The notes: generated by a model not told the origin, from the sequence alone. DNA of 38,237 nucleotides from Theionarchaea archaeon (GCA_018992685.1 JACVGT010000039.1:1-38237), one strand, 5' to 3'. Numbered from the stretch's first letter, positions 8,856 through 32,290 are shown. A program made the numbers and translations.

Positions 8856-11528
8856 ATGAAAGAAAAAAAGGTTACACTTCTCGTCCTGGCAATGTTGTTG
8901 AGTTTGGCCCTTCCTGCAGCTTTTTCTGAGAAGAGTGCATTCACTGTTGACTACACCTTCGAGCCAGTCAAGGCTGATGGGTGCCAGGGATGTGGCTTCT
9001 GGACAATCGAAGACACTCGAGTGTTGAATGAACCAGGAGCTCCGCTGATACCCTACAGGATGGGTACCATTCTTCTCCCCCAGGGCACAGAACTGAAGGA
9101 TGTCAAGGTACGGCATACGAAGCCCCTTGTTCAGTCTGGATTTGATCTTCCGTGGGGCCAGCCACCCTGCACATTCAGTGACAATCCCATGACTGTTGGC
9201 AAGAATGAAGGAATCTATGGCACAGATACTCCATATCCTGGCAAAACACTTGAGATCGTGGGCATCCAGTACTGCAGAGGATTCGCGCTCCTCTATATTC
9301 ACTTGTTCCCAGTCCAGTATATGCCCGAATCTGGATCAGTGAAATTCTATCCGAACCTGACTGTGGATATTCAATTCACCACGGGCAAAAAGAACAACCT
9401 GTACAGAGGACTGGCTTCTGACAAAGCAGCTGTGATGGACATGGTGGATAATCCCGAAGTCGTTGAAACATACGAAGATGGACCGTTCCCCCTGGCTTCT
9501 GAAGAGTACATTATTATTACCAGCGACACCATGCAGTCAACGTTCCAGACATTAGCCACCTATAAGATGGGATACGTGAATGGAGCTTCTGTCTATACAG
9601 TCTCCTGGATCATAGCCAACTACTCCGGGGTAGACAATGCAGAGAAAATCAGAAACTTCATCATTGATAAGTATACCAATAACGGTACCAAGTATGTCCT
9701 GCTGGGCGGAGACATCTCTGCTGTTCCATACAGAGGATTTTATGTGTCGACTGGTGGATACACTGATTATGACATGCTGGCCGACATGTATTTTGCCCAC
9801 TTGGATGGTTCCCACAATGAAGATGGTGACAGCTACTGGGGCGAGACTCATGACAGTGTCGACTTCGCTGCAGAGATTGCTGTTGGCAGAGCACCCTGTG
9901 AGACAGTAACGGAAGCTTCGAATTTTGTCAACAAGGTCATAGCACATGACCAGGCAGAAAAGCCCAATAAGGTACTGTTCCACCAGTCCAGAGTACAGTC
10001 TGGCAACACGCCTGACTCCAGATGCCTGGCCTGGAACTGTGCTCAATGGCTGCCTGACTACTATGACATGGAGTATCTCTTTGAGGAGGTAGATGGCGTG
10101 ACCAAGCAAGAGTGGATCGATGCGTGGGCAGCCGGCCCAGTTTCAGTAGTCCACATTGGCCACGGAAATTCTGAGGTCTACTACATCAACCTCGAAAAGG
10201 ATGTTGGCACAGTCAGCTGGTACGGCTCAGATGTGGCTGCGATGACCAACACGTTCTGGCCTTGGACCACAAGCGTCGCCTGCATCTGTGGACAGATCGA
10301 GTACAATGACTGCCTGGCAGAACAATATGTCAAGGACCCTGACAACGGAGCTATTGCAGCCATTTATAATGACAACTATGGCTGGTTCAACACGATTAAT
10401 GCATGCATGTACTCTGGCGAATTCTGCGAAATGGAGTTCAGAGCCTGTTGGAGCGACGGGGAAGGAAGAGCTGGTGATATGCTGAACAAGGCACGAAGCT
10501 ATCTGGCGTCGTCAGCACAGACGGACTCGACCTACCGGTGGTGCCACTATGAGAGGAATATTGTAGGAGATCCTCATATACGCGTGAAAAATGGTACCTC
10601 GGAGTCACCTCCTCCAGAAGGGAGTATTCAAATTACCACGCCCACTGCTGGATCAGAAGTTTCAGGTCTCGTCACAATCAAGATTTCCTCGACAGGATGT
10701 GTCAGCCTTGTGACGGGCTTGATTACCTATCAAGGGGTGCAAGTGCTCGCTGATGAATATGATCTTCTTCCTATAAACGGCCCGCCATTCATGTATTCGT
10801 GGGACACGCTTGAGCGAGACAATATGGGGGCGTTCAAGTACGAGAATGGAAGATACAAGATTTCAGTGAATGGATACTGTCCCAACTACTCCTCAGTTGT
10901 ATGTTCTAACAGTATTGAGGTCATTCTGAAGAACTACAGCGTCTGGCTGATCAGCCCGTCAGAGGGGGAAATCATCTCAGGTACGATCACGGTGGATGTG
11001 GATACTCTGGGAATGGACATGGTTGAGTTTTACATTGATGGGACCTTGAGGTCCACAGACACAGATGCACCCTTCCAGTTCAGTTGGGATACTACCCATG
11101 ATTCTGATGGTACTCACACTGTTGAGGTGAAAGGTTACTGCGAGGGATTGTTCAAAGATAGTTTCACTGTCACTGTCACCGTGGAGAATTACACCGACTA
11201 CTATGTAACTATTACAAATCCTTCAGAGGGTCAAACTGTCTCTGGAACTGTGAACATTACCACAACCACCAACTGCGAGGAAGTGCGGTTTTATGTCGAC
11301 GGCACCCTGGTGAGGGTTGATACAGCATCGCCATTTGACTACACCTGGGACACCACTGGATACTCTGATGGAACCCACACGATATTGGCTGAGGGATACA
11401 TTGGTGGCATGTTTATGGCTGAGGACTCCGTTGTATGCACGGTCAACAACAGTGGAGAGTGTCTCGGAACGATCCTGGTTGCCTTGCTCTTGCTACTAGG
11501 TGCTGCAGGAACCTGGAGAACACGGTGA
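8856..11528 (+). CDS. C25 family (gingipain-like) cysteine peptidase with propeptide, Ig-like repeats and C-terminal anchor
   Basis: GGAGGT SD and signal peptide. Propeptide motif EPGAPLIP; EYIIIT, YVLLGGD, ADMYFA, VGRAP; catalytic-dyad-like HIGHG and SVACICG; three Ig-like repeats (ITNPSEGQTVSG..V.FYVDG..PF.YTWDTT..DGTHT); tail GECLGT-TM-RTR. Confidence 0.9.
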   Translation: MKEKKVTLLVLAMLLSLALPAAFSEKSAFTVDYTFEPVKADGCQGCGFWTIEDTRVLNEPGAPLIPYRMGTILLPQGTELKDVKVRHTKPLVQSGFDLPWGQPPCTFSDNPMTVGKNEGIYGTDTPYPGKTLEIVGIQYCRGFALLYIHLFPVQYMPESGSVKFYPNLTVDIQFTTGKKNNLYRGLASDKAAVMDMVDNPEVVETYEDGPFPLASEEYIIITSDTMQSTFQTLATYKMGYVNGASVYTVSWIIANYSGVDNAEKIRNFIIDKYTNNGTKYVLLGGDISAVPYRGFYVSTGGYTDYDMLADMYFAHLDGSHNEDGDSYWGETHDSVDFAAEIAVGRAPCETVTEASNFVNKVIAHDQAEKPNKVLFHQSRVQSGNTPDSRCLAWNCAQWLPDYYDMEYLFEEVDGVTKQEWIDAWAAGPVSVVHIGHGNSEVYYINLEKDVGTVSWYGSDVAAMTNTFWPWTTSVACICGQIEYNDCLAEQYVKDPDNGAIAAIYNDNYGWFNTINACMYSGEFCEMEFRACWSDGEGRAGDMLNKARSYLASSAQTDSTYRWCHYERNIVGDPHIRVKNGTSESPPPEGSIQITTPTAGSEVSGLVTIKISSTGCVSLVTGLITYQGVQVLADEYDLLPINGPPFMYSWDTLERDNMGAFKYENGRYKISVNGYCPNYSSVVCSNSIEVILKNYSVWLISPSEGEIISGTITVDVDTLGMDMVEFYIDGTLRSTDTDAPFQFSWDTTHDSDGTHTVEVKGYCEGLFKDSFTVTVTVENYTDYYVTITNPSEGQTVSGTVNITTTTNCEEVRFYVDGTLVRVDTASPFDYTWDTTGYSDGTHTILAEGYIGGMFMAEDSVVCTVNNSGECLGTILVALLLLLGAAGTWRTR

Positions 11529-11787: not shown

Positions 11788-12645
11788 TCAGGAAGTACTC
11801 TCTTCAAGACTCAGTTTTCGATATCTCATTCGCCTCTGGTCATACCTCATGGGGTGTTCACAGCGGAATTCGAATACTATGTCATGCGGAATCTGTTCTG
11901 AGAACCAAGGCGCATAAAAGTCCCAATCACCGTCCACCTGGTTAGCACCTGTTGCAGTAACGTCTACCATGTAAGCTTCTCTATAATAAGTCCATGCTTT
12001 CCGATAATAGTCCATGGCTGCTTCAGAATTGCCCGCTTTCTGGTAGATGTAGCCAATCTCTTCATGCAGCCAGGCTCTTTCTATGGAATGGAGAGATTCT
12101 TTCTCAGGACCAATTCTTTCCCACGCTTCAAGAGCTTTTTGATTGTATGTTCGAGCTTCCCTCATGTTGTGAGCCTTCTCCCAGAAATCAGAAGCATATT
12201 GGAATAGTTGAGGCTGGAAGTATGTGCTTTCATCGGCCTCCTTCGAATGTTCCGCGGCCAATTCTGTATAAAGGGATTGGGCTAGGGTATGGTCCCCAAT
12301 TCCTTGGTAAACTCTGGCCAGCCAACGTTTAGTTGGGTAGGGATTGTTCAGAGCAGTTTCTCGTGCTTCTTCTTTTCTTCCGAGTGCAATCAAGCAATTC
12401 ACACGAATATGGATCCATGGATATTTAGATTGCTCTTCATATTCCAGCGTTTTCCTATACTGGGACTGTGCTTTCTCTCTTTCTCCCAGAAGCCTGTAGA
12501 TACGGGCAACATCAAAACTGTAGAACGTAACTGTAGAAAAATCCTTTCTCTCAAGTTCTTGTTGCAGTCTGGAGCAAGATTTATGTAAGAGCCTCTTGAG
12601 TTCTCGTCTTGTGAAGAGTGCTTCTGCTATTTTGGAGTATTCCAT
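11788..12645 (-). CDS. TPR-like cytoplasmic protein, copy 3 (putative immunity protein)
   Basis: 285 aa, no signal peptide. TPR-like AWLHEEIGYIYQKAGNSEAAMDYYRKA. Paralog of the two genes upstream. Confidence 0.8.
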   Translation of the reverse strand: MEYSKIAEALFTRRELKRLLHKSCSRLQQELERKDFSTVTFYSFDVARIYRLLGEREKAQSQYRKTLEYEEQSKYPWIHIRVNCLIALGRKEEARETALNNPYPTKRWLARVYQGIGDHTLAQSLYTELAAEHSKEADESTYFQPQLFQYASDFWEKAHNMREARTYNQKALEAWERIGPEKESLHSIERAWLHEEIGYIYQKAGNSEAAMDYYRKAWTYYREAYMVDVTATGANQVDGDWDFYAPWFSEQIPHDIVFEFRCEHPMRYDQRRMRYRKLSLEESTS

Positions 12646-12656
12646 TGTATCATCTC

Positions 12657-12850
12657 TTAATACGTACTGATCAGTTTGAATCCTTCACATAGCCATTTGC
12701 CAATGATAGTGGAGTATTCTTCCTTGGTTGTATCGTACATGTAGGGTGAATGACAATCCGCTCTGTATGCTGTTCTCAGTTCGCAAAATTCTCTAGAGTT
12801 TTTCCTTATAAATACTTCCCACTCCTTTCCCGCACTATCGAAGAAATGAC
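12657..12850 (-). pseudogene. Orphan C-terminal fragment (variant) of the 15597..17303 protein
   Basis: DSAGKEWEVFIRKNSREFCELRTAYRADCHSPY...IIGKWLCEGFKLISTY aligns without gaps to the last ~62 aa of the 568-aa protein. Confidence 0.85.
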
Positions 12851-12989
12851 ATTGGTGAAATCTATGAAGTGAGGGACAAGTGGTCTTTTCCCCCACCCGT
12901 TTGCCCACCGAATTCGGAGTTTGTCAAGGAGAGAAGACAATATTCTTCAGGGACAAGAGCTTCTACTGAGGATCAGCATTGTGTCTAAT

Positions 12990-13230
12990 CTTCTCTTGCA
13001 GCATGAGAATCTGTATTGTAGTCGCTTCGAGTCAGACTTCCATAGCCGCTCAAACCCAAAGTCAATCATGTGCAATTCTGGAAGCTGCATGTGGAACCAC
13101 TGTGCATAAAAATCCCGATCACCATCTACCTGATGAGCACCAATGGCAGTAGAATCTTCTGTACAGGCTTTTCTATACGTGATCTTGGCCTTTTGATAGT
13201 ATTTCATGGCAACTTCAAACTGTACAATGG
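12990..13230 (-). pseudogene. Relic 3' part of a divergent TPR-protein allele
   Basis: FEVAMKYYQKAKITYRKACTEDSTAIGAHQVDGDRDFYAQWF...KRLQYR aligns to the C-terminal third of the TPR proteins. The 5' part is absent. Confidence 0.75.
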
Positions 13231-14115
13231 TCAGGAAAGGCTGTCCCATGATCCATCAGGGTCTTCACTCTTTCTAGTACTGAGCTTCCGATATCTCATT
13301 CGCCTCTGGTCATACCTCATGGGGTGTTCACAGCGGAATTCGAATACTATGTCATGTGGAATCTGTTCTAAGAACCAAGGCGCATAGAAATCCCAATCAC
13401 CATCGAATAGATGATCCACTGTGGCCTCTAAATCCTCTGTATAAGCTTCTTTGTAATAGACCCATGCCTTCCGATAATAGTCCATGGCTGCTTCAAAATT
13501 GCCCGCTTTCTGGTAGATGTAACCAACCTCTTCGTGCAGCCAGGCTCTTTCTATGGGACGGAGAGACTCTTTCTCAGGACCAATTCTTTCCCAAACTTCA
13601 ACTGCTTTTTGATTGTATGTTCGAGCTTCCTTCATATTGCCAGCTTTTTCCCAAAAGTCAGAAGCATATTGGAATAGTTGTGGCCGAAAGTATGTGCTCT
13701 CATCAGCTTCTCTTGACTGTCCTGTTGCCAATTCCGTATAGAAATCTTGGGCAAGATCATAGTCTCCAAGTTCCTCATACAGATGTGCCAACAGGTTTTT
13801 CGTCGGATAAGGATCGTTCAAGACAACTTCTCGTGCTTCTTCTTTTCTTCCGAGTGCAATCAAGCATTTTCTCCTTATCTCCCTCCATTGATGTTTCGAT
13901 TGTTCAATGTATTCCAGCGTTTTTTCGCACTGGGACTGTGCCTTCTCTGGTTCTCCTAAGAACTGGTAAAGGCGGACTATATCAAAACTATAAAACGTAG
14001 CTATTGAGAAGTCTTTTCTCTCAAGTTCTTGCTGGAGTTCGGAGCAAGACTTCTGCAAGAGCCTCTTGAGTTCTCGTTTTGTGAAAAGCGCCTCTACTAT
14101 TTCGGAATATTCCAC
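13231..14115 (-). CDS. TPR-like cytoplasmic protein, copy 2 (putative immunity protein)
   Basis: True start is most likely GTG 14115 (AAGGTG SD; aligns with MEYSE of the paralogs; 294 aa), not 14208 as in the ORF track. Confidence 0.8.
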   Translation of the reverse strand: MEYSEIVEALFTKRELKRLLQKSCSELQQELERKDFSIATFYSFDIVRLYQFLGEPEKAQSQCEKTLEYIEQSKHQWREIRRKCLIALGRKEEAREVVLNDPYPTKNLLAHLYEELGDYDLAQDFYTELATGQSREADESTYFRPQLFQYASDFWEKAGNMKEARTYNQKAVEVWERIGPEKESLRPIERAWLHEEVGYIYQKAGNFEAAMDYYRKAWVYYKEAYTEDLEATVDHLFDGDWDFYAPWFLEQIPHDIVFEFRCEHPMRYDQRRMRYRKLSTRKSEDPDGSWDSLS

Positions 14116-14126
14116 AACGTCACCTT

Positions 14127-14320
14127 CTAGTACATGCTGATTTGCTTGAATTTTTCGTACAGCCATTTTGCAATGATTGTAAGACGGTTGCTTCCGTCTT
14201 CTCTGCACTTATACGGTGGGGGGCAATCCACTCTGTACGCTGTTCTCAGTTGATAAAACTCTTCAAAGTATTTCCTTATAAGCACTGCCCATTCCTTTCC
14301 TGCACTATCGATGAAGTGAC
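14127..14320 (-). pseudogene. Orphan C-terminal fragment (hybrid variant) of the 15597..17303 protein
   Basis: Manual translation HFIDSAGKEWAVLIRKYFEEFYQLRTAYRVDCPPPYKCREDGSNRLTIIAKWLYEKFKQISMY*. No start codon. Confidence 0.85.
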
Positions 14321-14459
14321 ATCGGTGAAATCTATGAAGTGAACAACAAGTGAATTTTTTCCGTTATCCATCTACCCACCGAACTTAGAGTATGTCAAGG
14401 AGAGAAGACAATATTCTTCAGGGACAAGACCCTCTACTGAGGATCAGCATTGTGTCTAA

Positions 14460-14700: not shown

Positions 14701-15585
14701 TCAGGAAACGCTGTCCCATGATCCATCAGTGTCTTCACTCTTTCTAGTACTGAGCTTCCGATATCTCATCCGTCTCTGATCATACCTCATTGGATGTTCA
14801 CAACGGAATTCGAACACAATGCCATACGGAATCTGTTCTGAGAACCAAGGCGCATAGAAATCCCAATCACCATCAAATTGATTAGCGCCAGTTGCAGTAA
14901 CATCTATCATGTAAGCATCTCTGTAGTAGGCCCAGGCTTTTCGATAATAGTCCATGGCTGTTTCAGAATCGCCCGCTTTCTGGTAGATATAGCCAATCTC
15001 CTCATGCAACCAGGCTTTTTCTATTGAAATGTGAGATTCTTCCCCGGATCTGACTTTTTCCCACGCTTCAACTGCCTTTTGATTGTATATTCTAGATTCC
15101 CTCATATTACTAGCCTTTTCCCAGAAATCAGAAGCATACTGGAACAGTTGAGGCTGGAAGTTCGTGCTCTCATCGGCCTCCTTCGAATGTTCCGCGGCCA
15201 ATTCTGCATAGTAAGTCTGAGCAAGATCATGGTCTTCAAGTTCCTCATATAGGTACGCGAAAAGTCTTTTGGTCGGATAAGGATCGCTTAAAACGATCTC
15301 TTGTGCTTCTTCTTTTTTTCCAAGAGCAATTAGGCATTTTCTCCATATCCCCCTCCATTGATGTCTCGATTGCTTAATGTATTCCAGCGTTTTTTCGCAC
15401 TGGGACTGTGCCTTCTCTGGTTCTCCTAAGAACTGGTAAATGCGAACCATGTCAAAACTATAAAACGTGGCAATCGAGAGATCCTTTTTTTCAAGTTCTT
15501 GCTGGAGTCTGCAGTAGGACTTCTGTAAGAGCCTTTCAAGTTCTCGTTTTGTGAATAGTGCTTCTACTATTTCAGAATATTCCAT
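14701..15585 (-). CDS. TPR-like cytoplasmic protein, copy 1 (putative cognate immunity protein)
   Basis: 294 aa. Starts 11 nt after the stop of the 568-aa gene, with an AAGGTG SD and no signal peptide. Confidence 0.8.
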   Translation of the reverse strand: MEYSEIVEALFTKRELERLLQKSYCRLQQELEKKDLSIATFYSFDMVRIYQFLGEPEKAQSQCEKTLEYIKQSRHQWRGIWRKCLIALGKKEEAQEIVLSDPYPTKRLFAYLYEELEDHDLAQTYYAELAAEHSKEADESTNFQPQLFQYASDFWEKASNMRESRIYNQKAVEAWEKVRSGEESHISIEKAWLHEEIGYIYQKAGDSETAMDYYRKAWAYYRDAYMIDVTATGANQFDGDWDFYAPWFSEQIPYGIVFEFRCEHPMRYDQRRMRYRKLSTRKSEDTDGSWDSVS

Positions 15586-15596
15586 AATGTCACCTT

Positions 15597-17303
15597 CTAG
15601 TAGATACTAATTTGCCTGAATTTTTCGCACAGCCATTTTGCAATGATTGTAAGACGGTTGCTTCCGTCTTCTCTGCACTTATACGGTGGAGGGCAATCCA
15701 CTCTGTACGCTGATATGAGTTGATAAAAGCCCTTATAGTATTTTTCTATGAATACTGCCCATTCCTTTCCTGCATCATCAACGTAGTAGTAGATGTATCG
15801 CCCCGTTTTTGCATTGTAGAACAGCTTCGATGCTCGTTCTATAATTTCCTGAATCATATGCTTATCATCAAGTATGGCTTGGTGACTGCTCGCTACACAC
15901 TCCTTTGTTGACTGTGCCCTCTGCGGAATGTGTGCCTGTCCATATGAACCTTCCACAACGATAACTACCTGTTTCCCGTCAATCCAGCCAGGGACTGCTG
16001 GTGGCCATTCGTATCCGACAGAAGGAGCAGTGACAACTAACAGGAAGACTGCTCCCACCACTCCAACAGCTATGGAAAGTACGGTCACGCATGCATCCAG
16101 GATGGCATAAAGAATGGCCAAGATATCTGGAAGAGTCAAAGTCCACCCGATTTCACCGAGTTCTGTATACACAAACATTGGAAGCATCACCAAGAGCTCC
16201 ATAAAGCTGAGATCTGGCTTCTTCACAAAAACGAGAGCAACCCCCAGATTGTTTGTCTCATCCAGTTCTTCCACATCACCCACAAAATCACCTAGTGGGC
16301 TGGCCGTGTACGCGGAAGCACTCTCTTCTGGCACCTGAAGAGCAGAGTATGACCGTATGTCAGATAGTGAACACTCTCTCAGAGCATCCGTATACACCTC
16401 AATCTCGGAGATCCCCAGGGCTGTGTCACCATTCAAAGCGGTGAGGGCTCCGCAGTGTATCTGCAGCCCAATAAAGAAATCTGCCATATATTCTGCTTCT
16501 CCTTTCCGGAGTTCCTGCTCTGCTGCCTTGTACACCTCTTTGGAGAATGCCTTGACATGTTCCAACGAGGGCTGGCTTTCAGACATTGCCTGAATGGCCT
16601 CAACCAGCTTTTCTTCAGCATTCTGAAGTCTTGGCCCATCATCCTTTTTCTTTCCTTTTCCCGGGGTTTCCTCTAATAAGAGCTTTAATGCAGCTATGGA
16701 TAACGTCGTCTGGATATCCAGTAACTCTGTCTGCTGCTCTTTTACCACCTGTGATGCAGTATGGAGCGTGGAATAGTGACCTACCAGAATGTCCTGGAGC
16801 TCCGAGATCTGGTCATCTGTGAATCCTGCCTGGTAGAGGCGGTCCCGTTCCTCAGGGGCAAATCCTCTGACTGCATAGTTGTGAAAATCATTGAAAGTGG
16901 CTAACCACTCTATGATCTCAGCTATATCCTCATCTGTATATCCGAGATCAGTCAAAGATTCCTTCCGGCTGTCAGATAACCCCATGAGGAGAATGATTTC
17001 CAGGTGGTTCTGGAGACTCACCTGTAGGGCATCATGGATATCCTGGGAAGCATTCTGCGCTTTTCCTATCTGGAGGGCAGTAGTCTCAATTGCCTGCAGT
17101 GTATGCTGATAGACGGCCTGCGTATTCTTTCCCTGCTGCAATTCCATGTATAAGAGGGTCACATCTTTCTGGAGAGAATAGAGGTCCTCGCGGTATTCTC
17201 TATACACGGGGAAATCAGTGTCTTCACAATCTCCAGGAAGAGCAGGATTGTTACAGAATGCCAGGATGAGTATGAGAGTCAGAGAGAGTGCTGCAGCCTT
17301 CAT
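15597..17303 (-). CDS. Secreted protein with helical N-region, hydrophobic segment and putative C-terminal toxin (BECR-like RNase) domain
   Basis: Signal peptide MKAAALSLTLILILAFC; long helical region; ~60-aa hydrophobic stretch; C-terminal ~135 aa with GQAHI..R, an aromatic beta-meander and LISAY. The toxin call is inferred from architecture and context. Confidence 0.65.
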   Translation of the reverse strand: MKAAALSLTLILILAFCNNPALPGDCEDTDFPVYREYREDLYSLQKDVTLLYMELQQGKNTQAVYQHTLQAIETTALQIGKAQNASQDIHDALQVSLQNHLEIILLMGLSDSRKESLTDLGYTDEDIAEIIEWLATFNDFHNYAVRGFAPEERDRLYQAGFTDDQISELQDILVGHYSTLHTASQVVKEQQTELLDIQTTLSIAALKLLLEETPGKGKKKDDGPRLQNAEEKLVEAIQAMSESQPSLEHVKAFSKEVYKAAEQELRKGEAEYMADFFIGLQIHCGALTALNGDTALGISEIEVYTDALRECSLSDIRSYSALQVPEESASAYTASPLGDFVGDVEELDETNNLGVALVFVKKPDLSFMELLVMLPMFVYTELGEIGWTLTLPDILAILYAILDACVTVLSIAVGVVGAVFLLVVTAPSVGYEWPPAVPGWIDGKQVVIVVEGSYGQAHIPQRAQSTKECVASSHQAILDDKHMIQEIIERASKLFYNAKTGRYIYYYVDDAGKEWAVFIEKYYKGFYQLISAYRVDCPPPYKCREDGSNRLTIIAKWLCEKFRQISIY

Positions 17304-19015
17304 AACAGCCCCTCCGGAGGATCAGCGATTGCCTGGATGATGTACCCTCCAGAATAGAGGGGAATCCAGGTGTATGTGATGGTGATACTCTCGTCTCTTG
17401 GTAATACTTCAATAAACACTCTGTGGACCACCTCGTCATCAATGAGGAGGATAACCCAGAAGTCCTCAGCATCGGCCTTTCCCTCATTTCTGACGGTCAC
17501 TGAGATTATGACCTCTTCCTTGATGTTGGGGCTCGCGGGATTCAGGGAAATATCTTCATTCAGTATGACGAGATCGGGCAATGCTTTGTGGGTTACAGCA
17601 AAGCTCCCATCAAAGAGCGCTTTGTAACACGTGCCTTCTCCTTCAACGATTATGACTCCACACACAGAGTACAATCCAGAAGAAGAGGGCGTATACTCAG
17701 CAGAATAGGTGCCGTCCTCATTATCCACCCAGGAGAGTGGGGTATAGGTGTCATCTGGGAGGTACAGGAGTGACGTAACCTCCCCACCTGAGAGGAGTTC
17801 TCCCTGTTCACTGAAAACTGTCAGCAGAAAGTCTACGGGCTCATCCAGGAAAGATTCTCCAATTTTAAGGATTGCAAAGGCGTTCTCGCAGTCCCTGACG
17901 TAAAAGGTTCCTCCTGCTTCCTCTAAGTAACACGAATCTGTGGAAATGTCTGCCGTAATGGAGTAGGACCCCTCATGTTCTGGCAGGTAAGACGCAGAAT
18001 AGATCCCTGGGGCACTGGAAGTCCACTCTAAATCTATAATCTCAGAGCCATCAGGTAAAGAGAGCACGCTGGCTATTTCCCCATCCAGCGGTTGGCCTCC
18101 CTCATCAGCAGCTGTAACGGTGACATGCACGCACTCTCCCAGGTCATACTCAGGAATGTCCTTGTCAAATTCCAAAGCCAGAGTGGCGTGATAGCACACA
18201 CCAAACGTGGTGGATGCCTGGACATCTTCATAGAATCGTTTCTTCACATAGACATGTGCTGTATATTGGCCTTCCTTTGGATCAGCCTGGACGCCCTGGT
18301 CATTGGTGAAATCCCACATGTAATAGTGACATTCCATTGCAGGGTTCCAGGACCAGTCTTCTGGCGTAATTGTTTTCTTTGTGGAATCGGGTAGCGCAAT
18401 ATCTCCTTTGATGCTGTCAGCCTGGATGTAGTCTCCTGTCTCTTCATCTGTTACCTGCAGGACTACCCGTGCAAAGGAGTCCCCACTTGAGTACTTTGGT
18501 TTGTTGGTCTTGAGATCAGCATGCATGTGGTGAGCACCTGTTCCATCATCGGGGAAGTACCACAAGGTGTTGTCTCCAACCAGGAAGGAGGGAGAAGTGA
18601 CCACATACTTTCCAGGTGGTATATAGGTGAGGGGTACATCTTCAATATTGAAATCAGGGTTCCAGGGCTGGACATACACCAGTTCTGCCGTATACAAAAT
18701 CGGAATGTTTTCAGTACAATTTTCAGGGCAATCATAATCGGGATAGGAACGGAAATTAAGGACACCCCCGATCTGCTGCTCATTGCTGATCCCAAATACC
18801 CAGAGAGGACGTCCAAAGACATAGACTGAAGGTACCCATTCCTCATAACGGCACATGTATCCTGAGGGGCACTCCTCACATTCATGGACGTGCCAGTGCT
18901 CTGGCATGGAGATGTGCCACTCCCTGGGTGTACCATAGGGAAGGGATTCAACATTATGGGAAGATGCAAGAGCAGCAATCAATATGAGAAACAGGAAGAT
19001 ATATCCTTTTTTCAT
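17300..19015 (-). CDS. Secreted multi-Ig-like protein ending in a C-terminally incomplete CARDB domain
   Basis: Likely start MKKGYIFLFLILIAALAS at 19015. Repeated Ig-like modules (LPDG..., G.YSA.Y.P...G.YS); LPDLVI..DISLNPASP...ISVTVRNEGKADA...ITYTW...GGYIIQAIADP. Stop overlaps the next start (ATGA). Confidence 0.8.
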   Translation of the reverse strand: MKKGYIFLFLILIAALASSHNVESLPYGTPREWHISMPEHWHVHECEECPSGYMCRYEEWVPSVYVFGRPLWVFGISNEQQIGGVLNFRSYPDYDCPENCTENIPILYTAELVYVQPWNPDFNIEDVPLTYIPPGKYVVTSPSFLVGDNTLWYFPDDGTGAHHMHADLKTNKPKYSSGDSFARVVLQVTDEETGDYIQADSIKGDIALPDSTKKTITPEDWSWNPAMECHYYMWDFTNDQGVQADPKEGQYTAHVYVKKRFYEDVQASTTFGVCYHATLALEFDKDIPEYDLGECVHVTVTAADEGGQPLDGEIASVLSLPDGSEIIDLEWTSSAPGIYSASYLPEHEGSYSITADISTDSCYLEEAGGTFYVRDCENAFAILKIGESFLDEPVDFLLTVFSEQGELLSGGEVTSLLYLPDDTYTPLSWVDNEDGTYSAEYTPSSSGLYSVCGVIIVEGEGTCYKALFDGSFAVTHKALPDLVILNEDISLNPASPNIKEEVIISVTVRNEGKADAEDFWVILLIDDEVVHRVFIEVLPRDESITITYTWIPLYSGGYIIQAIADPPEGLL

Positions 19016-19116
19016 CTTTTCATCTCCCAGCCTCCTGTAAAGGTAGTATGATCCACAAAAAAATCGGAAAAAGCGCATTTCAATATCTTGATTTTATCCA
19101 CCACGTAGATGTCCAT
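19012..19116 (-). CDS. Small upstream ORF, 34 aa (MDIYVVDKIKILKCAFSDFFVDHTTFTGGWEMKR)
   Basis: GGAGAGGTGG SD at 19130-19121, TTTATATG box at 19156-19149, and an ATGA stop/start overlap with the downstream gene. Confidence 0.4.
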   Translation of the reverse strand: MDIYVVDKIKILKCAFSDFFVDHTTFTGGWEMKR

Positions 19117-19253: not shown

Positions 19254-22200
19254 ATTTCAATCCTAACATAGTCTGATTTCAACACTGTCGAAAATAATGA
19301 CAATCCAGAAGATTTCGAACTTTCAATCCTAACATAGTCTGATTTCAACTGATGTAGGCTGTTGCGAAATGGTTACTGAAACTTATCTTTCAATCCTAAC
19401 ATAGTCTGATTTCAACAGCTCCCTTATCGTATGTCATGTCATCACCAGACAACTTTCAATCCTAACATAGTCTGATTTCAACATTCACACTGCAACAGAT
19501 ACACGATGAGATTCAGAGCTTTCAATCCTAACATAGTCTGATTTCAACAATTAGGAAATGTATTAAATAATGCGCAGGATGAACTCTTTCAATCCTAACA
19601 TAGTCTGATTTCAACCTGACTGCCATTGATATGGGAGACCAGCGAGCACCTTTCAATCCTAACATAGTCTGATTTCAACAATACCATTTGAGGTGGGTTA
19701 AATGGCATCAGTTAACTTTCAATCCTAACATAGTCTGATTTCAACCCCCCTGGCGGTTTATCTTGGATTTTCTTCACTTTTCCTTTCAATCCTAACATAG
19801 TCTGATTTCAACAAAAAAGAAGGATATGATGGCGAACGGTGTGCAGACTTTCAATCCTAACATAGTCTGATTTCAACACACAAAACTATGTCCCAGATGC
19901 CCTAATTTCATCTGCCTTTCAATCCTAACATAGTCTGATTTCAACTTTCAACGTCACCCTCTGCAAAAATGTAGTCCTGCCTTTCAATCCTAACATAGTC
20001 TGATTTCAACACTTGATGGAACAAAGCACAAAGCAATCAATCGCAGACTTTCAATCCTAACATAGTCTGATTTCAACTGTTCAGTTTCATCGATATATCA
20101 AAGAAGATAGAAGCTTTCAATCCTAACATAGTCTGATTTCAACCACGCTTCAACAGGTAATAAACGACACTGAATCTTCCTTTCAATCCTAACATAGTCT
20201 GATTTCAACTGTCTGACAGTCATGGTTGTTGCATTCTTCGTTATGCTTTCAATCCTAACATAGTCTGATTTCAACAATTTCTTGAATTTCTCAATCCTGG
20301 TAACTATGATTCTTTCAATCCTAACATAGTCTGATTTCAACGATCTACGGTTTGACGTCCTGATGAACGCCTATTTCCCTTTCAATCCTAACATAGTCTG
20401 ATTTCAACGATCTACGGTTTGACGTCCTGATGAACGCCTATTTCCCTTTCAATCCTAACATAGTCTGATTTCAACGATGGATAACGCAATGCAACTAGAT
20501 AGACAAAACGGACCATCTGCTTTCAATCCTAACATAGTCTGATTTCAACCGGCGATGTACCACGATGGCGATATTTACAATCCAACTTTCAATCCTAACA
20601 TAGTCTGATTTCAACTCTATTATACACATGACACTAGATTTTGTAGCAGACTTTCAATCCTAACATAGTCTGATTTCAACTCTGTACAGTTTTTGATATA
20701 CTATTTATAAACTTTGCTTTCAATCCTAACATAGTCTGATTTCAACTTCTCCACAGGTACAATAACACGAAACAAAGAAGACCTTTCAATCCTAACATAG
20801 TCTGATTTCAACGGAGGAGTGAGAACATGACCATAAAGGAGATATACGCTTTCAATCCTAACATAGTCTGATTTCAACCTTTGAAGTAGCCTTGAATATT
20901 GCTCTTGAAGACCCTTTCAATCCTAACATAGTCTGATTTCAACAGGGAAAAAAGGTGATCTTCCCGGTAAATGAACCAACTTTCAATCCTAACATAGTCT
21001 GATTTCAACCTTGAAGCTCCTGCAGTCCCGTTCTTGCTGTTTCTTCTTTCAATCCTAACATAGTCTGATTTCAACTCGAAAAAGCGCGTCAGAAACAGAA
21101 AGGTTATAGACTTTCAATCCTAACATAGTCTGATTTCAACGTCGAATACCATTTTAAATCTATGTTACAGATTTGCTTTCAATCCTAACATAGTCTGATT
21201 TCAACTTTCCACGTTTTGGCTTCTAATTTTGCTGTGAACATCTTTCAATCCTAACATAGTCTGATTTCAACGATATACAGTCTCAGAAGATGATTTATGC
21301 CAGATTTCTTTCAATCCTAACATAGTCTGATTTCAACTCTGTACAACACCTTCTTTATCCTTGAAAACGAGACCCTTTCAATCCTAACATAGTCTGATTT
21401 CAACCCTTGCTGATAACGATAATTTGTCTTCCCATCCAATCTTTCAATCCTAACATAGTCTGATTTCAACGTATTTCAGAGATTAAAGAAGAACTGCAGG
21501 AGATTACTTTCAATCCTAACATAGTCTGATTTCAACTAATACATCTTTAAATCCTGTAAATCTTTCTTCTTTCTTTCAATCCTAACATAGTCTGATTTCA
21601 ACCTAATGTGGGAATCCAGAAGAGTGACCACAGCACCCTTTCAATCCTAACATAGTCTGATTTCAACTTATTCTTTTTTTGGTGGGAATGGGAATATTTA
21701 TATCTTTCAATCCTAACATAGTCTGATTTCAACTGTAACCTGTTCTGCTTGTGCGCTCTTTCTGAGCACTTTCAATCCTAACATAGTCTGATTTCAACAC
21801 TTTATCACCTCCTATTCCAGTCTTATGAATCCACTTTCAATCCTAACATAGTCTGATTTCAACCAGTTCATGAAACAATTCGGCCCAGTGCGTGACCCTT
21901 TCAATCCTAACATAGTCTGATTTCAACTCGGGGGGCACGGCTGGACTGGGCGAACCTGACAGCTTTCAATCCTAACATAGTCTGATTTCAACATATCCTC
22001 CCATCCCGCATAAGCGAGCATATCATCGCTTTCAATCCTAACATAGTCTGATTTCAACCTCGCATTAGATCTACTTCCCCTCCTCTCTTACACCTTTCAA
22101 TCCTAACATAGTCTGATTTCAACATCAGCTTGTCAAAACTGAGAATGAACAGCTTGTAGCCTTTCAATCCTAACATAGTCTGATTTCAACAATTGGTCTC

Positions 22201-22980
22201 ATGTCTTTCATTGGATCCTCTCCTTCCTTTCAATCCTAACATAGTCTGATTTCAACAGTACCCGGATGTTTCATGTGACGTATTTCGTGGTACTTTCAAT
22301 CCTAACATAGTCTGATTTCAACTTCGATTCCTCCTGAATGGGTGATAATCTTTGACGACTTTCAATCCTAACATAGTCTGATTTCAACCTTTTCCTTTCT
22401 TTTCCTGGTCGTGTAGTATTCTGACTTTCAATCCTAACATAGTCTGATTTCAACATGCTAGAGGTATAGAATGTCTGTAACTACTGCTGCTTTCAATCCT
22501 AACATAGTCTGATTTCAACAATTACAAGAAATTAAACAAAATCAAAAGGTTCTAACTTTCAATCCTAACATAGTCTGATTTCAACACGGTGTCTTTTTGT
22601 CAGCGTAGAAATCCCAGATTTCTTTCAATCCTAACATAGTCTGATTTCAACATTACTCATTCATTTCATCCCCAGATGCTTAGCCTTTCTTTCAATCCTA
22701 ACATAGTCTGATTTCAACGTAGATGTAAGAGTCACAGGCGAATATAAGATCTTCTTTCAATCCTAACATAGTCTGATTTCAACAAAATCATTGAAGACTT
22801 GAGAAATTACGGTATTCTCCTTTCAATCCTAACATAGTCTGATTTCAACAATTCTACACGATGCCAATACCTGTGTTTTACGTAACTTTCAATCCTAACA
22901 TAGTCTGATTTCAACAATCACAATGGGGGTGGCATGGATGCGGCCGGAATCTTTCAATCCTAACATAGTCTGATTTCAAC
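19254..22980 (-). CRISPR. CRISPR array 1: 57 repeats, 56 spacers; repeat GTTGAAATCAGACTATGTTAGGATTGAAAG
   Basis: 30-bp repeat with ~34-44 nt spacers, counted by hand. The ATTGAAAG 3' end and the leader on the right give the minus orientation. Confidence 0.98.
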
Positions 22981-23107: not shown

Positions 23108-23365
23108 AATATTAGTAGGCTCAACCTTGGGTTCTCCAATGAACCTCCGATTTACCAGCGCCTCATCTCTCACCGTGTAGATAATAACCGAATCTTCTTT
23201 CTTCTCAATAATCTCTTCAACTCCGAGTTCGATCTCTTTCAACCGTGCCTTTGTCACTTCACCCTCCAGTACTGAATTCTGCATCCAATTCAAGTACTGT
23301 TTTAGAAAGATACGCACCTTGTCTACTCTCTCCACACTCACATCATACACGACAATGACATACAC
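23102..23365 (-). CDS. cas2: CRISPR-associated endonuclease Cas2
   Basis: YVIVVYDV...LKQYLNWMQNSVLEG...DSVIIY. GTG start at 23365 overlaps the cas1 stop (alternative start 23374). Confidence 0.95.
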   Translation of the reverse strand: MYVIVVYDVSVERVDKVRIFLKQYLNWMQNSVLEGEVTKARLKEIELGVEEIIEKKEDSVIIYTVRDEALVNRRFIGEPKVEPTNIL

Positions 23366-24339
23366 TACCACCACATCCTGAATGCCTTGTACGTCTGCAC
23401 GCCCAGAAAATGCTTTATCAACTTATAACACTCCAGTCGAATCAGCCTCTGATAAGAAACGTTCCGCCCCAGACTCCTGTGCTTCACGGTAGTTTTCAGT
23501 CTCTGGTCAAAATGACTCAAGAACACTTTCTTCCCTTCCTCATTCAGTAAACAGTTGTTCACGTCTTTGCGGAAATGGTCCTCTGTAATAATGCCCTTGT
23601 TCAAGACCTTGAAAATCACTCTGTCCCCGAGAAAAGGCTTGAAGACTTCACTCAAGTCCAGGCTTAGCGAGAACCGTCTTTCAAAGGGTTCGTGCAGGAA
23701 GCTCACACTGGGGTGCAATTGAGTATTATAGATCTCTGACAACGTTGCAGAGTACACCAGTGCGTTGCTAAAACTGATAAGACAGTTCACCATATTCTCT
23801 GGAGGTTGTCGTGTCCTCTTCTCAAACCGGAAATTCTCAGGCAATATCCTGTCAAAACACTGGTAGTACAGTCCCCTGATATTCCCTTCAATACTCATCA
23901 ACTGGGGAATACTCCCGGCATCAGGCACTTTTTCTGACCAGTCTTCAACCTGCCCAACTGTGTCTTCCAGATCGTAGTACCTCAGATTCCTTACAATGTT
24001 GTCAAACCCTCCCGAGAGTAGTTCCTTTGCCAGGTCTAGTCTTTTCTCACTGTCGAGATAGTGGGCTGCCTGCCTTACCACGATGTCTCCTGAAACCAGA
24101 GATTCTCGTGGATAGAACGACCCCTCAAAGAACCCATAGTGGTTGAAAAAGTGGATGCACACCCCATTCTTTGCCAGGTACGACAAGACACCAGAAGTCA
24201 CAGAAACTCTTCCATATACAAAAATCGTGTGAATTTTGTGTATGGGAAGCAGGAATTTCCTTTCCCTGCTCACAAAGTATACCGTGTTCTCTTTCCTCAT
24301 CAATTTCCCATCCTTTACCAAGTAAAAATTTACTTTCAT
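23365..24339 (-). CDS. cas1: Type I-B Cas1
   Basis: GKLMRKENT, HFFNHYG, LMSIEG, PPENMVNCLISFSN, SFLHEP, SLSLDLSEVFKP, ECYKLIKH, and an F..WW end. ATG 24339 overlaps the cas4 stop. Confidence 0.97.
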   Translation of the reverse strand: MKVNFYLVKDGKLMRKENTVYFVSRERKFLLPIHKIHTIFVYGRVSVTSGVLSYLAKNGVCIHFFNHYGFFEGSFYPRESLVSGDIVVRQAAHYLDSEKRLDLAKELLSGGFDNIVRNLRYYDLEDTVGQVEDWSEKVPDAGSIPQLMSIEGNIRGLYYQCFDRILPENFRFEKRTRQPPENMVNCLISFSNALVYSATLSEIYNTQLHPSVSFLHEPFERRFSLSLDLSEVFKPFLGDRVIFKVLNKGIITEDHFRKDVNNCLLNEEGKKVFLSHFDQRLKTTVKHRSLGRNVSYQRLIRLECYKLIKHFLGVQTYKAFRMWW

Positions 24340-24842
24340 CACATCACCCAGCACAATTCATAGTAACTGCATTTCTTGCAGTAAGGTTTTTTCTCAGGGG
24401 ACGGGGGAGTTCCTGCAGAGACAACCTGTACAATATCTTTGAGAATACCTTCAATCTCTTCTTCCTGAGAGCTTTCCAAAACGATTTTCTCTCTCTTTCG
24501 AAGAAGGGGATAGTTTATTACCCCTGTGGCTACTATCCCTTTCTGTTTCAGGTAGTACAGGTAGTACAGCAATTGGTAGATGTGTGATTTTTCCATTTTT
24601 CTGGAACGTTTTACTTCGTGGAGAACTACCCCTTTCCCCTCTTCTATGAAATCAACATTTATTGGTCCAATTCTCATTTCCTTTTCCCTCTTGTAACTGG
24701 TCTGATGCAGCAGCTTCCCCATGAACACTGCATCACTGGTATGTTCCATTGCAGAGTAGTGAGAGAATAACCACAACTTGCTCTTACAAATGAAGTAGTA
24801 GTTCACCTGCACCCCCGTTATTGTAGATTCCTTGGTAAGCAT
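24339..24842 (-). CDS. cas4: Cas4 exonuclease
   Basis: ITGVQVNYYFICKSKLWLF, EVKRS, QLLYYLY, CKKCSYYELC (Fe-S cysteines). Start chosen at MLTKES with an AGAGGA SD. Confidence 0.95.
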   Translation of the reverse strand: MLTKESTITGVQVNYYFICKSKLWLFSHYSAMEHTSDAVFMGKLLHQTSYKREKEMRIGPINVDFIEEGKGVVLHEVKRSRKMEKSHIYQLLYYLYYLKQKGIVATGVINYPLLRKREKIVLESSQEEEIEGILKDIVQVVSAGTPPSPEKKPYCKKCSYYELCWVM

Positions 24843-24923
24843 TAGTTCCTCTTTGTAGCAATGATATAAATACATTTCCTTTGGAGAGACAAATACTTAA
24901 AATCAGAGTGGGGAGAGCAAAAC

Positions 24924-27497
24924 TCAAAGAACATTTTCCAATAACCCGATTCTCTCATTTTCTTCCTCCAGAATCGAGCTGTCAAATCCATATTCCTCAT
25001 GATAGGGAAGCTTGCAGATCCAGTAGATTCTTGTCTTCCACTTAAATTGTCGTTCCACAGGTTCAAACCATTGAAGTTCATCACCATGCATCTTCATGTC
25101 CAACTGTATCCACCAATAGGGAATCTTGACTTGATTTTCAGTTCTGAGTTTCCCTTCATTATCCTCGTAGCGTACTTCCGGGACAACATCAAACTTCCTA
25201 TAAGCTCCTGTTCTGATTACAAAGTGATTTCCTACCTCTTCAGAAAATGTAATATCACCAGGCTTCAGGCCGAAGAGAAAACACTTCTTAAAGAGGCTCG
25301 GCTTTCCTTCAAATTCCAAGAAGCCATAAGCGCCCTCGAATTTCCCTCTTTTTTCGAATTCCTCAAGATAGTCATCTCCATAAACACTGTCACACACGTC
25401 CTTCAGGGAGCCATAGGAATGAACACCCTCATGGAGACTGTCCCTGGTTCTCTCGACTATGCTCTCCTCATAGGGGAGGACGTGCTCTGGTGGATACACT
25501 TTCATTAGAAATTCATGGCCATCCGTCTTCCAGTGTGTGCCATTTCTGTTTAACCTTCCTGCCCTCTGACCCAGAGCATCTGATGGAGCCACCTCAGTAT
25601 ACATGACGTCACAGGAAATATCAAGAGAAATTTCTATAACCTGTGTTGAGACAACAACCACAGGTCTTTTCCCTTTCTTTAATCCTTCTATGAGTTCTTT
25701 CTCTTTCTTTGTTCTGTCTGAGTAGGTGAATTGTGAATGAATGAGACATAGAGAGCCTTTGTCAATCTCACTTTTGATCGCGTCATAGAACTGCTGAGCT
25801 CTCCTTACTGTGTTTAGAATGATGAATTGGTTGAGATTTTGCAGATAGTTACTTCTTACTTCCTCTACGACCTCCTGGGCAACTGTTCCTTTCTCTACAA
25901 GATGATAGTCCAAGAACTTCATCTTGAACGGTGTAAATGACAGTCCTTCATCATCCTGCACCTCCTTGTATGTTATCCCTTCTTCTATTGAGTCTCTTGC
26001 CAACCTTGTTGTCATGAATGCTGGCAGAGTTCCACTCATCAAGAGATGGGGAATTCTCATTTTCCGAAGGATGGTGAAAAGATCGACGAGGTGTCTCAGC
26101 GTCTGTGCCTCATAGTAATGGATTTCATCAAAGACCATAACAGCATTCTGCAGATTTCCGCAGGCAAAATCAGCCTGTGGAAATCCATGAACAAAGGAAA
26201 GGATGAGATGATCTATTGTGGTAACTGTCACAGGCTTATAGAAAACCTTACCTTTGAATTCTTCACTCTTCACTTCTTCCACTTCTTCCTCATCCAGTTC
26301 AGATTCATTGCCCTTTTCTCTTCGAAGTTCTTCTTTCAACTTGATAGAAGACTTGCCATGGTAGAGTCCCACGAGCTCTTTTCCATGAAATCCTGCCTTG
26401 TTGAGGGTCTTCACAAACCGGTCCAAGATAGCATTACTGGTGGTTTGGGTGGGCATGGCGAAAACGATCTTGTTCTTGTTGAACCTCCTGCAGATGTCCA
26501 ATGCCCAAATAAGGGCAGCTTCAGTTTTTCCTCTGCCGCATGGAGCAAACAAGAAGGAATAGGGAGATGCTTCTCCACGTATTCTGGATTGGAAACCGTA
26601 TGGTACATTATTCCCCAAGATATCTGCTGCAGAAAGGGTGGGAAGAGTCAAAACATAATCATCAGGACTCTCTAAGAGAGGACCGAGCACTTTCTGACTC
26701 GGCAGTCCGGCACAAAAGTCAGAAAAATGTGCACTAGAATAGAAGTCGCAGAGTTTGGTAACGGAAAGAAAAAACGTGAAAAGCGATTTCATCCGTGTCA
26801 TTTCACTCAATTCTTCTATTGTTTGCACTTTACCTTTTACTGAGGATCTCCTGCTTAAAGGGAAGAGATAACTGTTGATCTTTCGACGTGCATTCTCTGA
26901 TTTCAAGACTTCTATGGACCGCACGGGTGCATTCAGGTCCCATGCAAACTCAAAAAATGGCTTGAATCCGAGCACATCATATGCTTTTGGGAAGTGATTC
27001 AAGTGGTCCACCATCTCTTCTTGAAGTGGATCAACTCTTCGTATTTCAGCATTCTGATACAAGGCATCATGTAGCTGTGAATGGTGGGAGAGTACTGTAA
27101 GGGGCTCAACAACAGGAAATCCCTCTATCGGATATACTGAAGGAATTCTGACCTTGAAGACTTCAAGTGCTAAGGGAAACCCAAAAAAAGCGTGAGGGTA
27201 CCTCTGAGATCTCTTATTTTGCCTGATTCTGTCCTGGAATTGCCTGGTAAGCTTTCCTACGTCGTGAAGATATATGGTCACAAAAAGATTCTTCATGAGA
27301 GTTGCGGGTTCTGTGCCACACCGCTTTGAGAAAGAGAGGACTGATTGATAGTTCTTTTCAAAATAACACTTCAGAATTCGCAGGCAATCGGTAGTATGTC
27401 CTTCGAGAGTCTGGAAGTAAGTCTTCTTTTCTCCTTGGAATTCCGTCTCACAACTTTTCGCCACTCCCTGCATAAGATTTAAATAGTCTCTGCCCAT
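24924..27497 (-). CDS. cas3: Cas3 HD nuclease-helicase
   Basis: HD domain (TLEGHT, LHDVGK, SHH, LCDFYSS) plus SF2 motifs APCGRGKT, DEIH, SGT and QRAGRLNR. Alternative start at 27473. Confidence 0.97.
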   Translation of the reverse strand: MGRDYLNLMQGVAKSCETEFQGEKKTYFQTLEGHTTDCLRILKCYFEKNYQSVLSFSKRCGTEPATLMKNLFVTIYLHDVGKLTRQFQDRIRQNKRSQRYPHAFFGFPLALEVFKVRIPSVYPIEGFPVVEPLTVLSHHSQLHDALYQNAEIRRVDPLQEEMVDHLNHFPKAYDVLGFKPFFEFAWDLNAPVRSIEVLKSENARRKINSYLFPLSRRSSVKGKVQTIEELSEMTRMKSLFTFFLSVTKLCDFYSSAHFSDFCAGLPSQKVLGPLLESPDDYVLTLPTLSAADILGNNVPYGFQSRIRGEASPYSFLFAPCGRGKTEAALIWALDICRRFNKNKIVFAMPTQTTSNAILDRFVKTLNKAGFHGKELVGLYHGKSSIKLKEELRREKGNESELDEEEVEEVKSEEFKGKVFYKPVTVTTIDHLILSFVHGFPQADFACGNLQNAVMVFDEIHYYEAQTLRHLVDLFTILRKMRIPHLLMSGTLPAFMTTRLARDSIEEGITYKEVQDDEGLSFTPFKMKFLDYHLVEKGTVAQEVVEEVRSNYLQNLNQFIILNTVRRAQQFYDAIKSEIDKGSLCLIHSQFTYSDRTKKEKELIEGLKKGKRPVVVVSTQVIEISLDISCDVMYTEVAPSDALGQRAGRLNRNGTHWKTDGHEFLMKVYPPEHVLPYEESIVERTRDSLHEGVHSYGSLKDVCDSVYGDDYLEEFEKRGKFEGAYGFLEFEGKPSLFKKCFLFGLKPGDITFSEEVGNHFVIRTGAYRKFDVVPEVRYEDNEGKLRTENQVKIPYWWIQLDMKMHGDELQWFEPVERQFKWKTRIYWICKLPYHEEYGFDSSILEEENERIGLLENVL

Positions 27498-27509
27498 AAG
27501 AACCTTTTG

Positions 27510-28334: not shown

Positions 28335-28335
28335 G

Positions 28336-32204: not shown

Positions 32205-32290
32205 TCCATCAACTTGCAAGGAAATGAGGATAAGAACTATTTAAACTTTTCCCTAAGTATGAAAAGGACAAGTCCAATGTGTGATCGTGT

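Follow-up and report, generated by a model that had tools for sequence, protein, structure and literature searches.

Two overlapping genes in an uncultured marine-sediment archaeon raise the question of whether one immunoglobulin (Ig)-like domain can be encoded in two pieces, on two separate proteins. The window analysed here is the whole stretch of 38,237 nucleotides from Theionarchaea archaeon (GCA_018992685.1 JACVGT010000039.1:1-38237), and both genes lie on its minus strand. The upstream gene encodes a protein that we call the carrier, whose last domain is of the CARDB type, and the downstream gene encodes its partner, a protein of a different architecture. A first-pass annotation of this DNA had noted that the CARDB domain of the carrier seemed to lack its last strand, that the missing piece seemed to lie inside the partner, and had interpreted the arrangement as the docking of two secreted proteins by donor-strand complementation in a toxin delivery system. 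Our analysis confirmed the observation of a split CARDB domain and partly supported that interpretation.

The tail-less CARDB domain of the carrier

The carrier gene (17300..19078, minus strand), delimited as an open reading frame (ORF) and translated, encodes 592 amino acids (aa). An AlphaFold2 (AF2) model of the whole carrier was all-beta, with a mean predicted local distance difference test score (pLDDT) of 86.2, and showed an N-terminal hydrophobic signal-like helix followed by tandem beta-sandwich domains of macroglobulin (MG)/Ig-like, Filamin-type fold; no C-terminal anchor was seen in the protein, a putative receptor-binding carrier in the first-pass annotation. When compared by Foldseek, the model matched the strings of MG domains of complement C3/C5/A2M with an E-value of about 1e-12, and Pfam recognised CARDB and Filamin. 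The CARDB family (PF07705) scored 50.3 bits over residues 501-587, where the cut-off is 22.7, and in a genome-wide profile scan this domain was the best CARDB match of the genome (53 bits).

The match extended over profile positions 2-85 of 101, with positions 86-101 unmatched in the carrier's own chain and 5 residues left, so that the domain does end early, as had been claimed. From Pfam, the AF2 model and the homologs, the tail-less domain was delimited to residues 500-592, from LPDLVI to the end (17303..17581, minus strand). It has neither the E-x-[DN]-E-x-N-N tail nor a last strand in the carrier chain: AF2 placed six strands in it (510-513, 523-531, 537-546, 549-559, 564-571 and 581-585), and then the chain ends. 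The carrier C-terminus reads GGYIIQAIADPPEGLL before the stop codon, 5 residues past 'ADP'; in the solved CARDB structure 2l0d, 'DP' corresponds to residues 85-86 of 114.

Partial profile coverage alone is weak evidence of truncation, since many internal CARDB repeats of the same genome also align only to about profile position 82. Twenty-two CARDB matches of this genome were inspected for the residues left before the stop codon, and the carrier domain alone had fewer residues (5) than unmatched positions (16), the next shortest having 12 residues for 9 positions. This lack of room, and not the partial coverage, is the stronger and decisive point for truncation.

The same early end was found throughout the homologs. 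Together with the query, 27 of the 30 database homologs reach the CARDB domain, and all 28 of these carriers stop 5-14 residues after AD[PAV]; a complete CARDB domain, which the first-pass annotation had named as evidence against its own claim, was found in none of them. The other three homologs (P0073, P0074 and P0078) lack the CARDB region, the first two being short forms that end earlier and the third diverging before it. The carrier alignment contains no spare tail motif, and the final two carrier residues are hydrophobic in 27/28 and 25/28 sequences, respectively.

A detached CARDB tail in the partner

The partner gene (15597..17303, minus strand; ORF and translation) encodes 568 aa, for which neither Pfam nor NCBIfam returned a family. 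Its relatives form a family of 47 members, annotated only as 'hypothetical protein' and derived from Theionarchaea or Methanofastidiosia metagenome-assembled genomes, 34 of which were aligned (alignment A1) after leaving out 3 near-identical sequences and 10 fragments. All segments of the partner described next lie on the minus strand. On the basis of hydropathy and A1, the protein begins with a hydrophobic signal-like segment (residues 1-29, 17217..17303), with a Kyte-Doolittle peak at residues 3-23 and a mostly conserved Cys17; both carrier and partner are thus predicted, from hydropathy or model, to start with segments of this kind. A helical bundle body (residues 30-313, 16365..17216; AF2 helices at 32-313) precedes a poorly conserved linker that was modelled as disordered (residues 314-339, 16287..16364). 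Then comes the stretch that, by its motif and homology, we propose as a donor strand, the detached CARDB tail (residues 340-361, 16221..16286). It is followed by hydrophobic helices (residues 362-431, 16011..16220), placed by AF2 at 367-382, 391-403 and 408-425 and strongly hydrophobic (Kyte-Doolittle above 1.6) across 388-431, and by a C-terminal alpha/beta domain, the candidate toxin module (residues 432-568, 15600..16010), which AF2 modelled with confidence at 436-568 (pLDDT about 87-94).

Modelled alone, the whole partner had a mean pLDDT of 69.8, with a coil across residues 314-366 and pLDDT values below 50 over 320-359, motif included, which places the motif outside the partner's own fold. 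Its claimed position between a helical body (helices 32-313) and a hydrophobic segment (helices 367-425) was therefore borne out. No Ig-like domain was detected in the partner by Pfam or AF2. In structure comparisons, the body resembled many helical bundles, alpha-pore-forming toxin components among them, at scores that do not rise above noise for proteins of helical fold (McpS, Z 12.6; AhlC/AhlB, Z 9.8-11.2). Foldseek gave no row at E 0.001 or better for the whole partner model, and the A1 profile gave no match below E 0.03 in the PDB.

The motif itself, GDVEELDETNNLGVALVFVK, comprises partner residues 342-361 (16280-16221, minus strand); the first-pass annotation had located it correctly, with an end at 16224 that is one codon short. 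The donor segment can be written as FVGDVEELDETNN plus the strand LGVALVFVK. Its pattern, G-x-[VI]-x-E-x-x-E-x-N-N-x7-[VIA]-K, occurred in all members of the 47-protein family except one (46/47), the exception being a 339-aa fragment that ends before the motif, and this settled in the positive the doubt raised earlier about its conservation. Six positions (G342, E346, E349, N351, N352 and K361) were invariant in the 34 sequences of A1, and variants of the motif persist in distant homologs at 26-42% identity, such as P0086 and P0099. The mean majority fraction was 0.742 for the motif, as opposed to 0.376 for the linker and 0.481 for the hydrophobic region. The motif stands out as conserved between two variable neighbours, the linker and the hydrophobic region.

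Comparison with unrelated CARDB proteins indicated where this motif belongs. In 8/8 examples their canonical tails read VDP-x(2-9)-V-x-E-L-D-E-x-N-N followed by a strand. A phmmer search of 1.84 billion representative proteins with partner residues 322-568 gave 33 matches, and those beyond the family include multi-CARDB proteins (P0097, P0106 and P0109) matched through the motif stretch alone; in P0097, which has 12 CARDB repeats, 8 stretches were matched (E 4.5e-10). Aligned by BLASTP to the repeat junctions of P0097, the stretch covers a repeat's tail and runs on into the 'PDL' that opens the following repeat. On a local CARDB profile of 115 positions, built from 37 complete repeats, the two proteins covered complementary parts: carriers about positions 12-91 (28/28) and partners about 88-115 (34/34). 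Partner scores on this profile were 7.5-19.0 bits, compared with at most -2.7 bits for 34 reversed and at most 2.7 bits for 170 shuffled sequences. By these sequence comparisons, partner residues 340-361 are homologous to the C-terminal part of CARDB, a resemblance beyond chance.

The local full-length profile was insensitive genome-wide, with 3 domains at an independent E-value below 0.05 among 38,346 frames and the carrier missed at default filters. An earlier profile, built from the truncated carriers, gave weak, fragmentary matches on other CARDB proteins and was dropped. Searches with pieces of the motif returned no Pfam family for isolated 32-aa and 47-aa peptides, even at E 10, and nothing in a PDB sequence search with a 67-aa piece.

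Two further observations concern CARDB tails. Straight after the strand of the partner, 'KKPDLS' (16203-16220, minus strand; residues 362-367) can be aligned with the 'PDL' that starts the following repeat in tandem CARDB proteins, and it may be what is left of a second, ancestral CARDB since converted into the hydrophobic region. Elsewhere in the same genome (G000 C7:122229-124721 and C28:34201-34896), a 1339-aa frame has seven CARDB-profile matches and one faint one, and its repeat tails carry acidic 'DPDSTPDNDDGDQSEDDED' stretches in place of the E-x-D-E-x-N-N turn, a variant within the same genome.

Gene overlap and the proposed assembly

The last two bases of the partner ATG also belong to the carrier TGA (ATGA, 17300-17303), and a Shine-Dalgarno-like run, GGAGGGG (17309..17315, minus strand), lies 5 nt upstream of this ATG, within the carrier P-E-G codons. 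The ATGA overlap with an upstream GGAGG(G) was found in 5 distinct loci (the window, L004/L008, which are one contig seen twice, L005, L009 and L010), and a sixth, L011, has a GTG start after GGAGGG. L005 keeps GGAGGG with a different carrier tail (..VGRRVIQ), and its partner is cut by the contig end after residue 259. The truncation and the motif occurred in adjacent overlapping genes in every locus showing both (the window, L004/L008, L009, L010 and L011). The translational coupling of the two genes and the co-occurrence of truncation and motif in homologous operons, both anticipated by the first-pass annotation, thus held. Contigs of four public runs differed by substitutions and never by indels, and one of them, assembled in an independent study, spans the gene junction; no RNA run was among the public runs listed. 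A search of 61 related genomes with this query detected the partner in 3, the window's own included: in 2/2 other genomes of the same genus and 0/58 others. Judging from source names, the family was found only in Theionarchaea/Methanofastidiosia-like genomes.

A tail-less CARDB domain kept beside a body-less CARDB tail, through much divergence and with translational coupling, is most simply accounted for if the tail completes the carrier domain in trans, and we consider that it probably does so. In the assembly we propose, a single CARDB (Ig-like beta-sandwich) domain would be encoded across two genes. The carrier would provide strands A to F and halt just past the 'ADP' that closes strand F, and the partner, translated from its overlapping Shine-Dalgarno-coupled start with a signal-like segment of its own, would bring what remains, the E-x-D-E-x-N-N turn together with the final strand, held on a flexible linker that separates its helical body from the hydrophobic helices. 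Once both proteins had been exported, the tail of the partner would slot in beside carrier strand F and complete the sandwich, by which the anchor-less MG/Ig-like stalk would be tied 1:1 to a membrane-active partner. Docking to this hydrophobic protein would also give the carrier the anchor not seen in the carrier itself. Ca2+, thought earlier to stabilise the complex, might take part in it; a literature search on the CARDB domain with calcium and crystal structure found nothing relevant by title or abstract.

Several observations weigh against such an assembly. The tail-less domain was modelled alone with high confidence (pLDDT about 88-94), and because AF2 is confident in the six-strand domain, it may not need completing. 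The donor strand is hydrophobic at nearly every position instead of alternating, so that a membrane-proximal or other buried role would also fit. The motif is not the top-conserved block of the partner, ranking 55 among 549 windows of 20 residues and fifth among non-overlapping blocks, and both genes occur together in only 5 to 6 loci. The conservation of the carrier P-E-G end says little about the protein, since the Shine-Dalgarno sequence in the DNA can explain it; this end may reflect a nucleotide constraint from the translation signal. Finally, the core-motif match on the local profile is partly circular because its repeats were picked by a tail-motif regular expression, a circularity of which the phmmer result is free, and the latter stands as independent evidence of homology.

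The confident model of the domain without its partner and the uniformly hydrophobic strand, directly ahead of hydrophobic helices, could instead mean that the tail is the relic of a gene fission or insertion, kept for another job (a hinge, a metal site, a processing site or a membrane-proximal element). The 3' part of the partner gene would once have followed a complete CARDB, and the six-strand domain of the carrier would be stable alone or pair with a second carrier. KKPDLS, which looks like the head of a lost further CARDB repeat, suggests the decay of an ancestral tandem array of this kind. A relic, however, would not keep six positions unchanged among proteins that share as little as 34% identity, nor would the neighbouring domain miss exactly those residues in 28/28 carriers; no second tail-less CARDB appeared among the 22 genome matches examined, and a literature search turned up no other function for the E-x-D-E-x-N-N turn, all of which makes this explanation distinctly unlikely. 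A frameshift at the overlap would join both ORFs, which do overlap and are one frame apart, and complete the CARDB in cis around a 340-residue helical insert; the available portions of PMC10865825 and PMC12077191 describe 'split domains' of this sort in RTX (repeats-in-toxin) adhesins, where single-chain Ig-like domains are split by inserted domains. Stop codon, start codon and Shine-Dalgarno-like run were nevertheless kept in 6/6 loci, the bases before the overlap vary among loci with no shared slippery sequence evident, the partner sequences of A1 start with a hydrophobic signal-like segment that is conserved, and other assemblies show no indel at the junction; that no fused homolog longer than 994 aa was found adds weak evidence in the same direction, and we regard a frameshift as highly improbable. 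As for a chance resemblance or an assembly artefact, the motif is short and the isolated peptide gave nothing in the Pfam and PDB searches, but the phmmer homology, the profile controls and the conservation of the motif in 46/47 proteins speak against the former, which the conservation data refute, and the recurrence of the arrangement in independent assemblies and loci against the latter; the probability of either is practically nil.

The toxin-like locus and known systems

The partner gene lies in a locus with a characteristic layout. Downstream of the partner gene, on the same minus strand, lies the gene of a 294-aa tetratricopeptide repeat (TPR) protein (14701..15585; Pfam TPR_12 and TPR_8), a candidate immunity protein with no signal-like N-terminus, homologs of which also follow the partner in L004/L008 and L009. 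Sequence matching then revealed two orphan fragments of the partner's C-terminus, also on the minus strand: one (14130..14321) resembling residues 505-568 with 77% identity, and another (12660..12848) resembling residues 506-568 with 49% identity. Each precedes its own TPR gene, downstream of the full-length gene, the first that of a second TPR protein (13231..14208, minus strand; ORF and Pfam), 325 aa as listed and of uncertain start, and the other that of a third, of 285 aa (11788..12645, minus strand; ORF and Pfam). Polymorphic toxin loci have this cassette layout, a full-length gene accompanied by orphan fragments and immunity-like genes. A 100-aa ORF (12947-13249, minus strand) looks by eye like the C-terminal portion of a TPR protein (..AHQVDGDRDFYAQWF..); it lies between the cassettes and probably represents a fourth immunity-like copy that is broken.

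Because of this layout, in which three TPR genes accompany two orphan fragments of the C-terminus, the carrier-partner pair could be the delivery part of a polymorphic-toxin-like system, with the C-terminal alpha/beta domain as toxin and the cytoplasmic TPR proteins as immunity proteins, a reading for and against which we find the balance even. The word 'toxin' in the first-pass annotation was apt for the layout of the locus and not for any recognised domain, as Pfam, NCBIfam, Foldseek and Atlas found no known toxin domain in the partner. The C-terminal domain, which falls into two sequence subtypes in A1, gave weak Foldseek rows to the RNase toxins BrnT and HigB2 (probability up to 0.60, E above 1), and the best Atlas score was 0.87, with EndoU and Ntox35 as leads, below any threshold.

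The main alternative to toxin delivery accepts the docking and gives the pair a surface-anchor or signalling role: the partner would be the membrane anchor or signal transducer of a surface adhesin or sensor stalk, with a cytoplasmic C-terminal domain that talks to the TPR proteins. AF2 gives three helices in the hydrophobic region, and with an odd number of helices the C-terminal domain would be inside the cell, where TPR proteins without a signal-like start would also reside. No toxin family was recognised, and all the C-terminal domains in A1 are mutually homologous, whereas classic polymorphic toxins have unrelated swapped tips. On the other hand, the last 63 residues recur in two orphan copies, with a TPR gene behind each, in a typical toxin/immunity cassette layout, the restriction of strong hydrophobicity to residues 388-431 fits a two-helix hairpin with the C-terminal domain outside, and the weak structural rows point to RNase toxins. 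Taken together, these points put a role of this kind on the unlikely side.

Other features of the window surround this locus. An 890-aa secreted-type protease is encoded some 260 bases away from the third TPR gene (8856-11528, plus strand), with a C25 (gingipain-like) peptidase with its propeptide and two Big_7 Ig domains. On the other side of the locus, across a first array of clustered regularly interspaced short palindromic repeats (CRISPR; 19254-22980, 57 copies), a type I cas operon (23365-32219, minus strand) lies directly upstream of the carrier gene, and Pfam identified in it Cas1, Cas4, a Cas3-like helicase, Cas5, DevR/Csa2 (Cas7) and Cas6, besides a 511-aa ORF without family. A second array (32357-33772, 22 copies) shares the common 30-base repeat, with 2 bases changed, so that the two arrays flank the operon. 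Further on, a 605-aa protein (36419-38236, minus strand) has PD40/WD40-like beta-propeller repeats (E 8e-80). By Pfam, no chaperone or usher family was present among 16 further ORFs of the window, which comprised MFS, C25 peptidase, cas genes, PD40 propeller and 7 ORFs without family.

If both the docking and the toxin reading are right, the pair would be a natural two-gene 'tag and catcher' of the Theionarchaea/Methanofastidiosia group, a CARDB domain split at its last loop by which a membrane-active, toxin-tipped protein is loaded 1:1, free of chaperones, onto a separately exported MG/Ig-like stalk. It would then be the first donor-strand complementation that builds a toxin delivery complex and not a filament, and one case of a wider joining of unlike secreted proteins through split Ig-like domains; for this whole picture we put the prospects a little short of even. 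Were the tail indeed to complete the carrier's domain, anaerobic marine-sediment archaea would have provided a compact natural heterodimerisation device of about 90 plus about 25 residues, and donor-strand complementation would reach beyond filaments, serving to load a carrier with cargo. The pair would also offer a first mechanistic handle on a contact-dependent toxin apparatus in archaea, which to our knowledge lack the bacterial secretion machines. Archaeal polymorphic toxin systems have been predicted and are uncharacterised according to the available portions of PMC8416519. Protein engineers could test the carrier-partner pair directly. In annotation work, an interface between two proteins can be marked by a domain cut short where its gene ends and an orphan motif in the gene beside it, and the P-E-G case would illustrate how the conservation of a protein end can be driven by a translation signal.

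The principle we propose, from sequence homology, is donor-strand complementation. The genes of chaperone-usher pili (Fim, Pap) encode Ig-like subunits that lack the C-terminal G strand, and a strand of another polypeptide completes the fold; each subunit is both donor, through its N-terminal extension, and acceptor, so that polymers form, for which a periplasmic chaperone and an usher are required. The carrier likewise has an acceptor Ig-like domain short of its last strand, and the candidate strand is on another polypeptide. Unlike pilus subunits, the carrier would be only acceptor and the partner only donor, since the partner has no Ig-like domain and the carrier no spare tail, and the donor would be the domain's own native tail, internal in a helical membrane-active protein. 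The chaperone-usher comparison made earlier therefore stands as to principle and goes no further: here one donor would pair with one acceptor, the donor would be an internal segment of a protein that is not Ig-like, and neither a chaperone nor an usher gene was recognised nearby. SpyTag/SpyCatcher is an engineered split Ig-like domain in which a missing-strand peptide docks and an isopeptide bond locks the two parts; the partner peptide would also be the missing strand of an Ig-like domain, although nothing here suggests a covalent bond. Polymorphic toxin systems reportedly carry orphan toxin-tip/immunity cassettes (Zhang et al. 2012). As in such systems, a full-length gene and an immunity-like gene are followed here by truncated C-terminal copies, each with an immunity-like gene. 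Unlike in them, none of the known trafficking, pre-toxin or toxin domains is present, the tips share one fold as divergent homologs, and two proteins make up the delivery part.

Our literature searches retrieved nothing that joins a donor strand with a polymorphic toxin; in that on strand complementation, toxin, immunity protein and Ig-like domain, 'strand complementation' was absent among the best matches listed, and that on Theionarchaea and toxin gave nothing on a split CARDB pair by title or abstract, nor did the available portion of PMC6393860. The nearest described gene module is VARTIG of the Thermococcales, from a related archaeal class, in which, as far as the available portions of PMC8416519 go, a large secreted archaeal protein of about five Ig/MG-like domains, CARDB included, heads a variable polymorphic-toxin-like locus of unknown function. 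The paper mentions no split strand (the word 'strand' is absent), and its authors report no counterpart outside Thermococcales. VARTIG proteins differ from the carrier in that they end in a hypervariable, complete C-terminal Ig domain with a DNNxxxGG end motif (PMC8416519), whereas the carrier, which by eye lacks that motif, ends in ...ADPPEGLL. Archaeal threads (PMC9715654) and cannulae, the latter with Ca2+ (PMC12518558), are described in the available parts of these papers as homopolymeric filaments built by chaperone-free donor-strand complementation. They resemble the present case as archaeal extracellular proteins with strand complementation without a known chaperone, and differ in being homopolymers, as opposed to the heterodimer of unlike proteins predicted here in a toxin-like locus. 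Lastly, the split Ig-like domains of RTX adhesins (PMC10865825, PMC12077191, as far as available) share with the carrier-partner pair a beta-sandwich interrupted by a large unrelated insert, after which its last part returns. In the RTX adhesins all of this takes place within one chain, whereas here the interruption contains a stop codon as well as a further start and a further signal-like segment.

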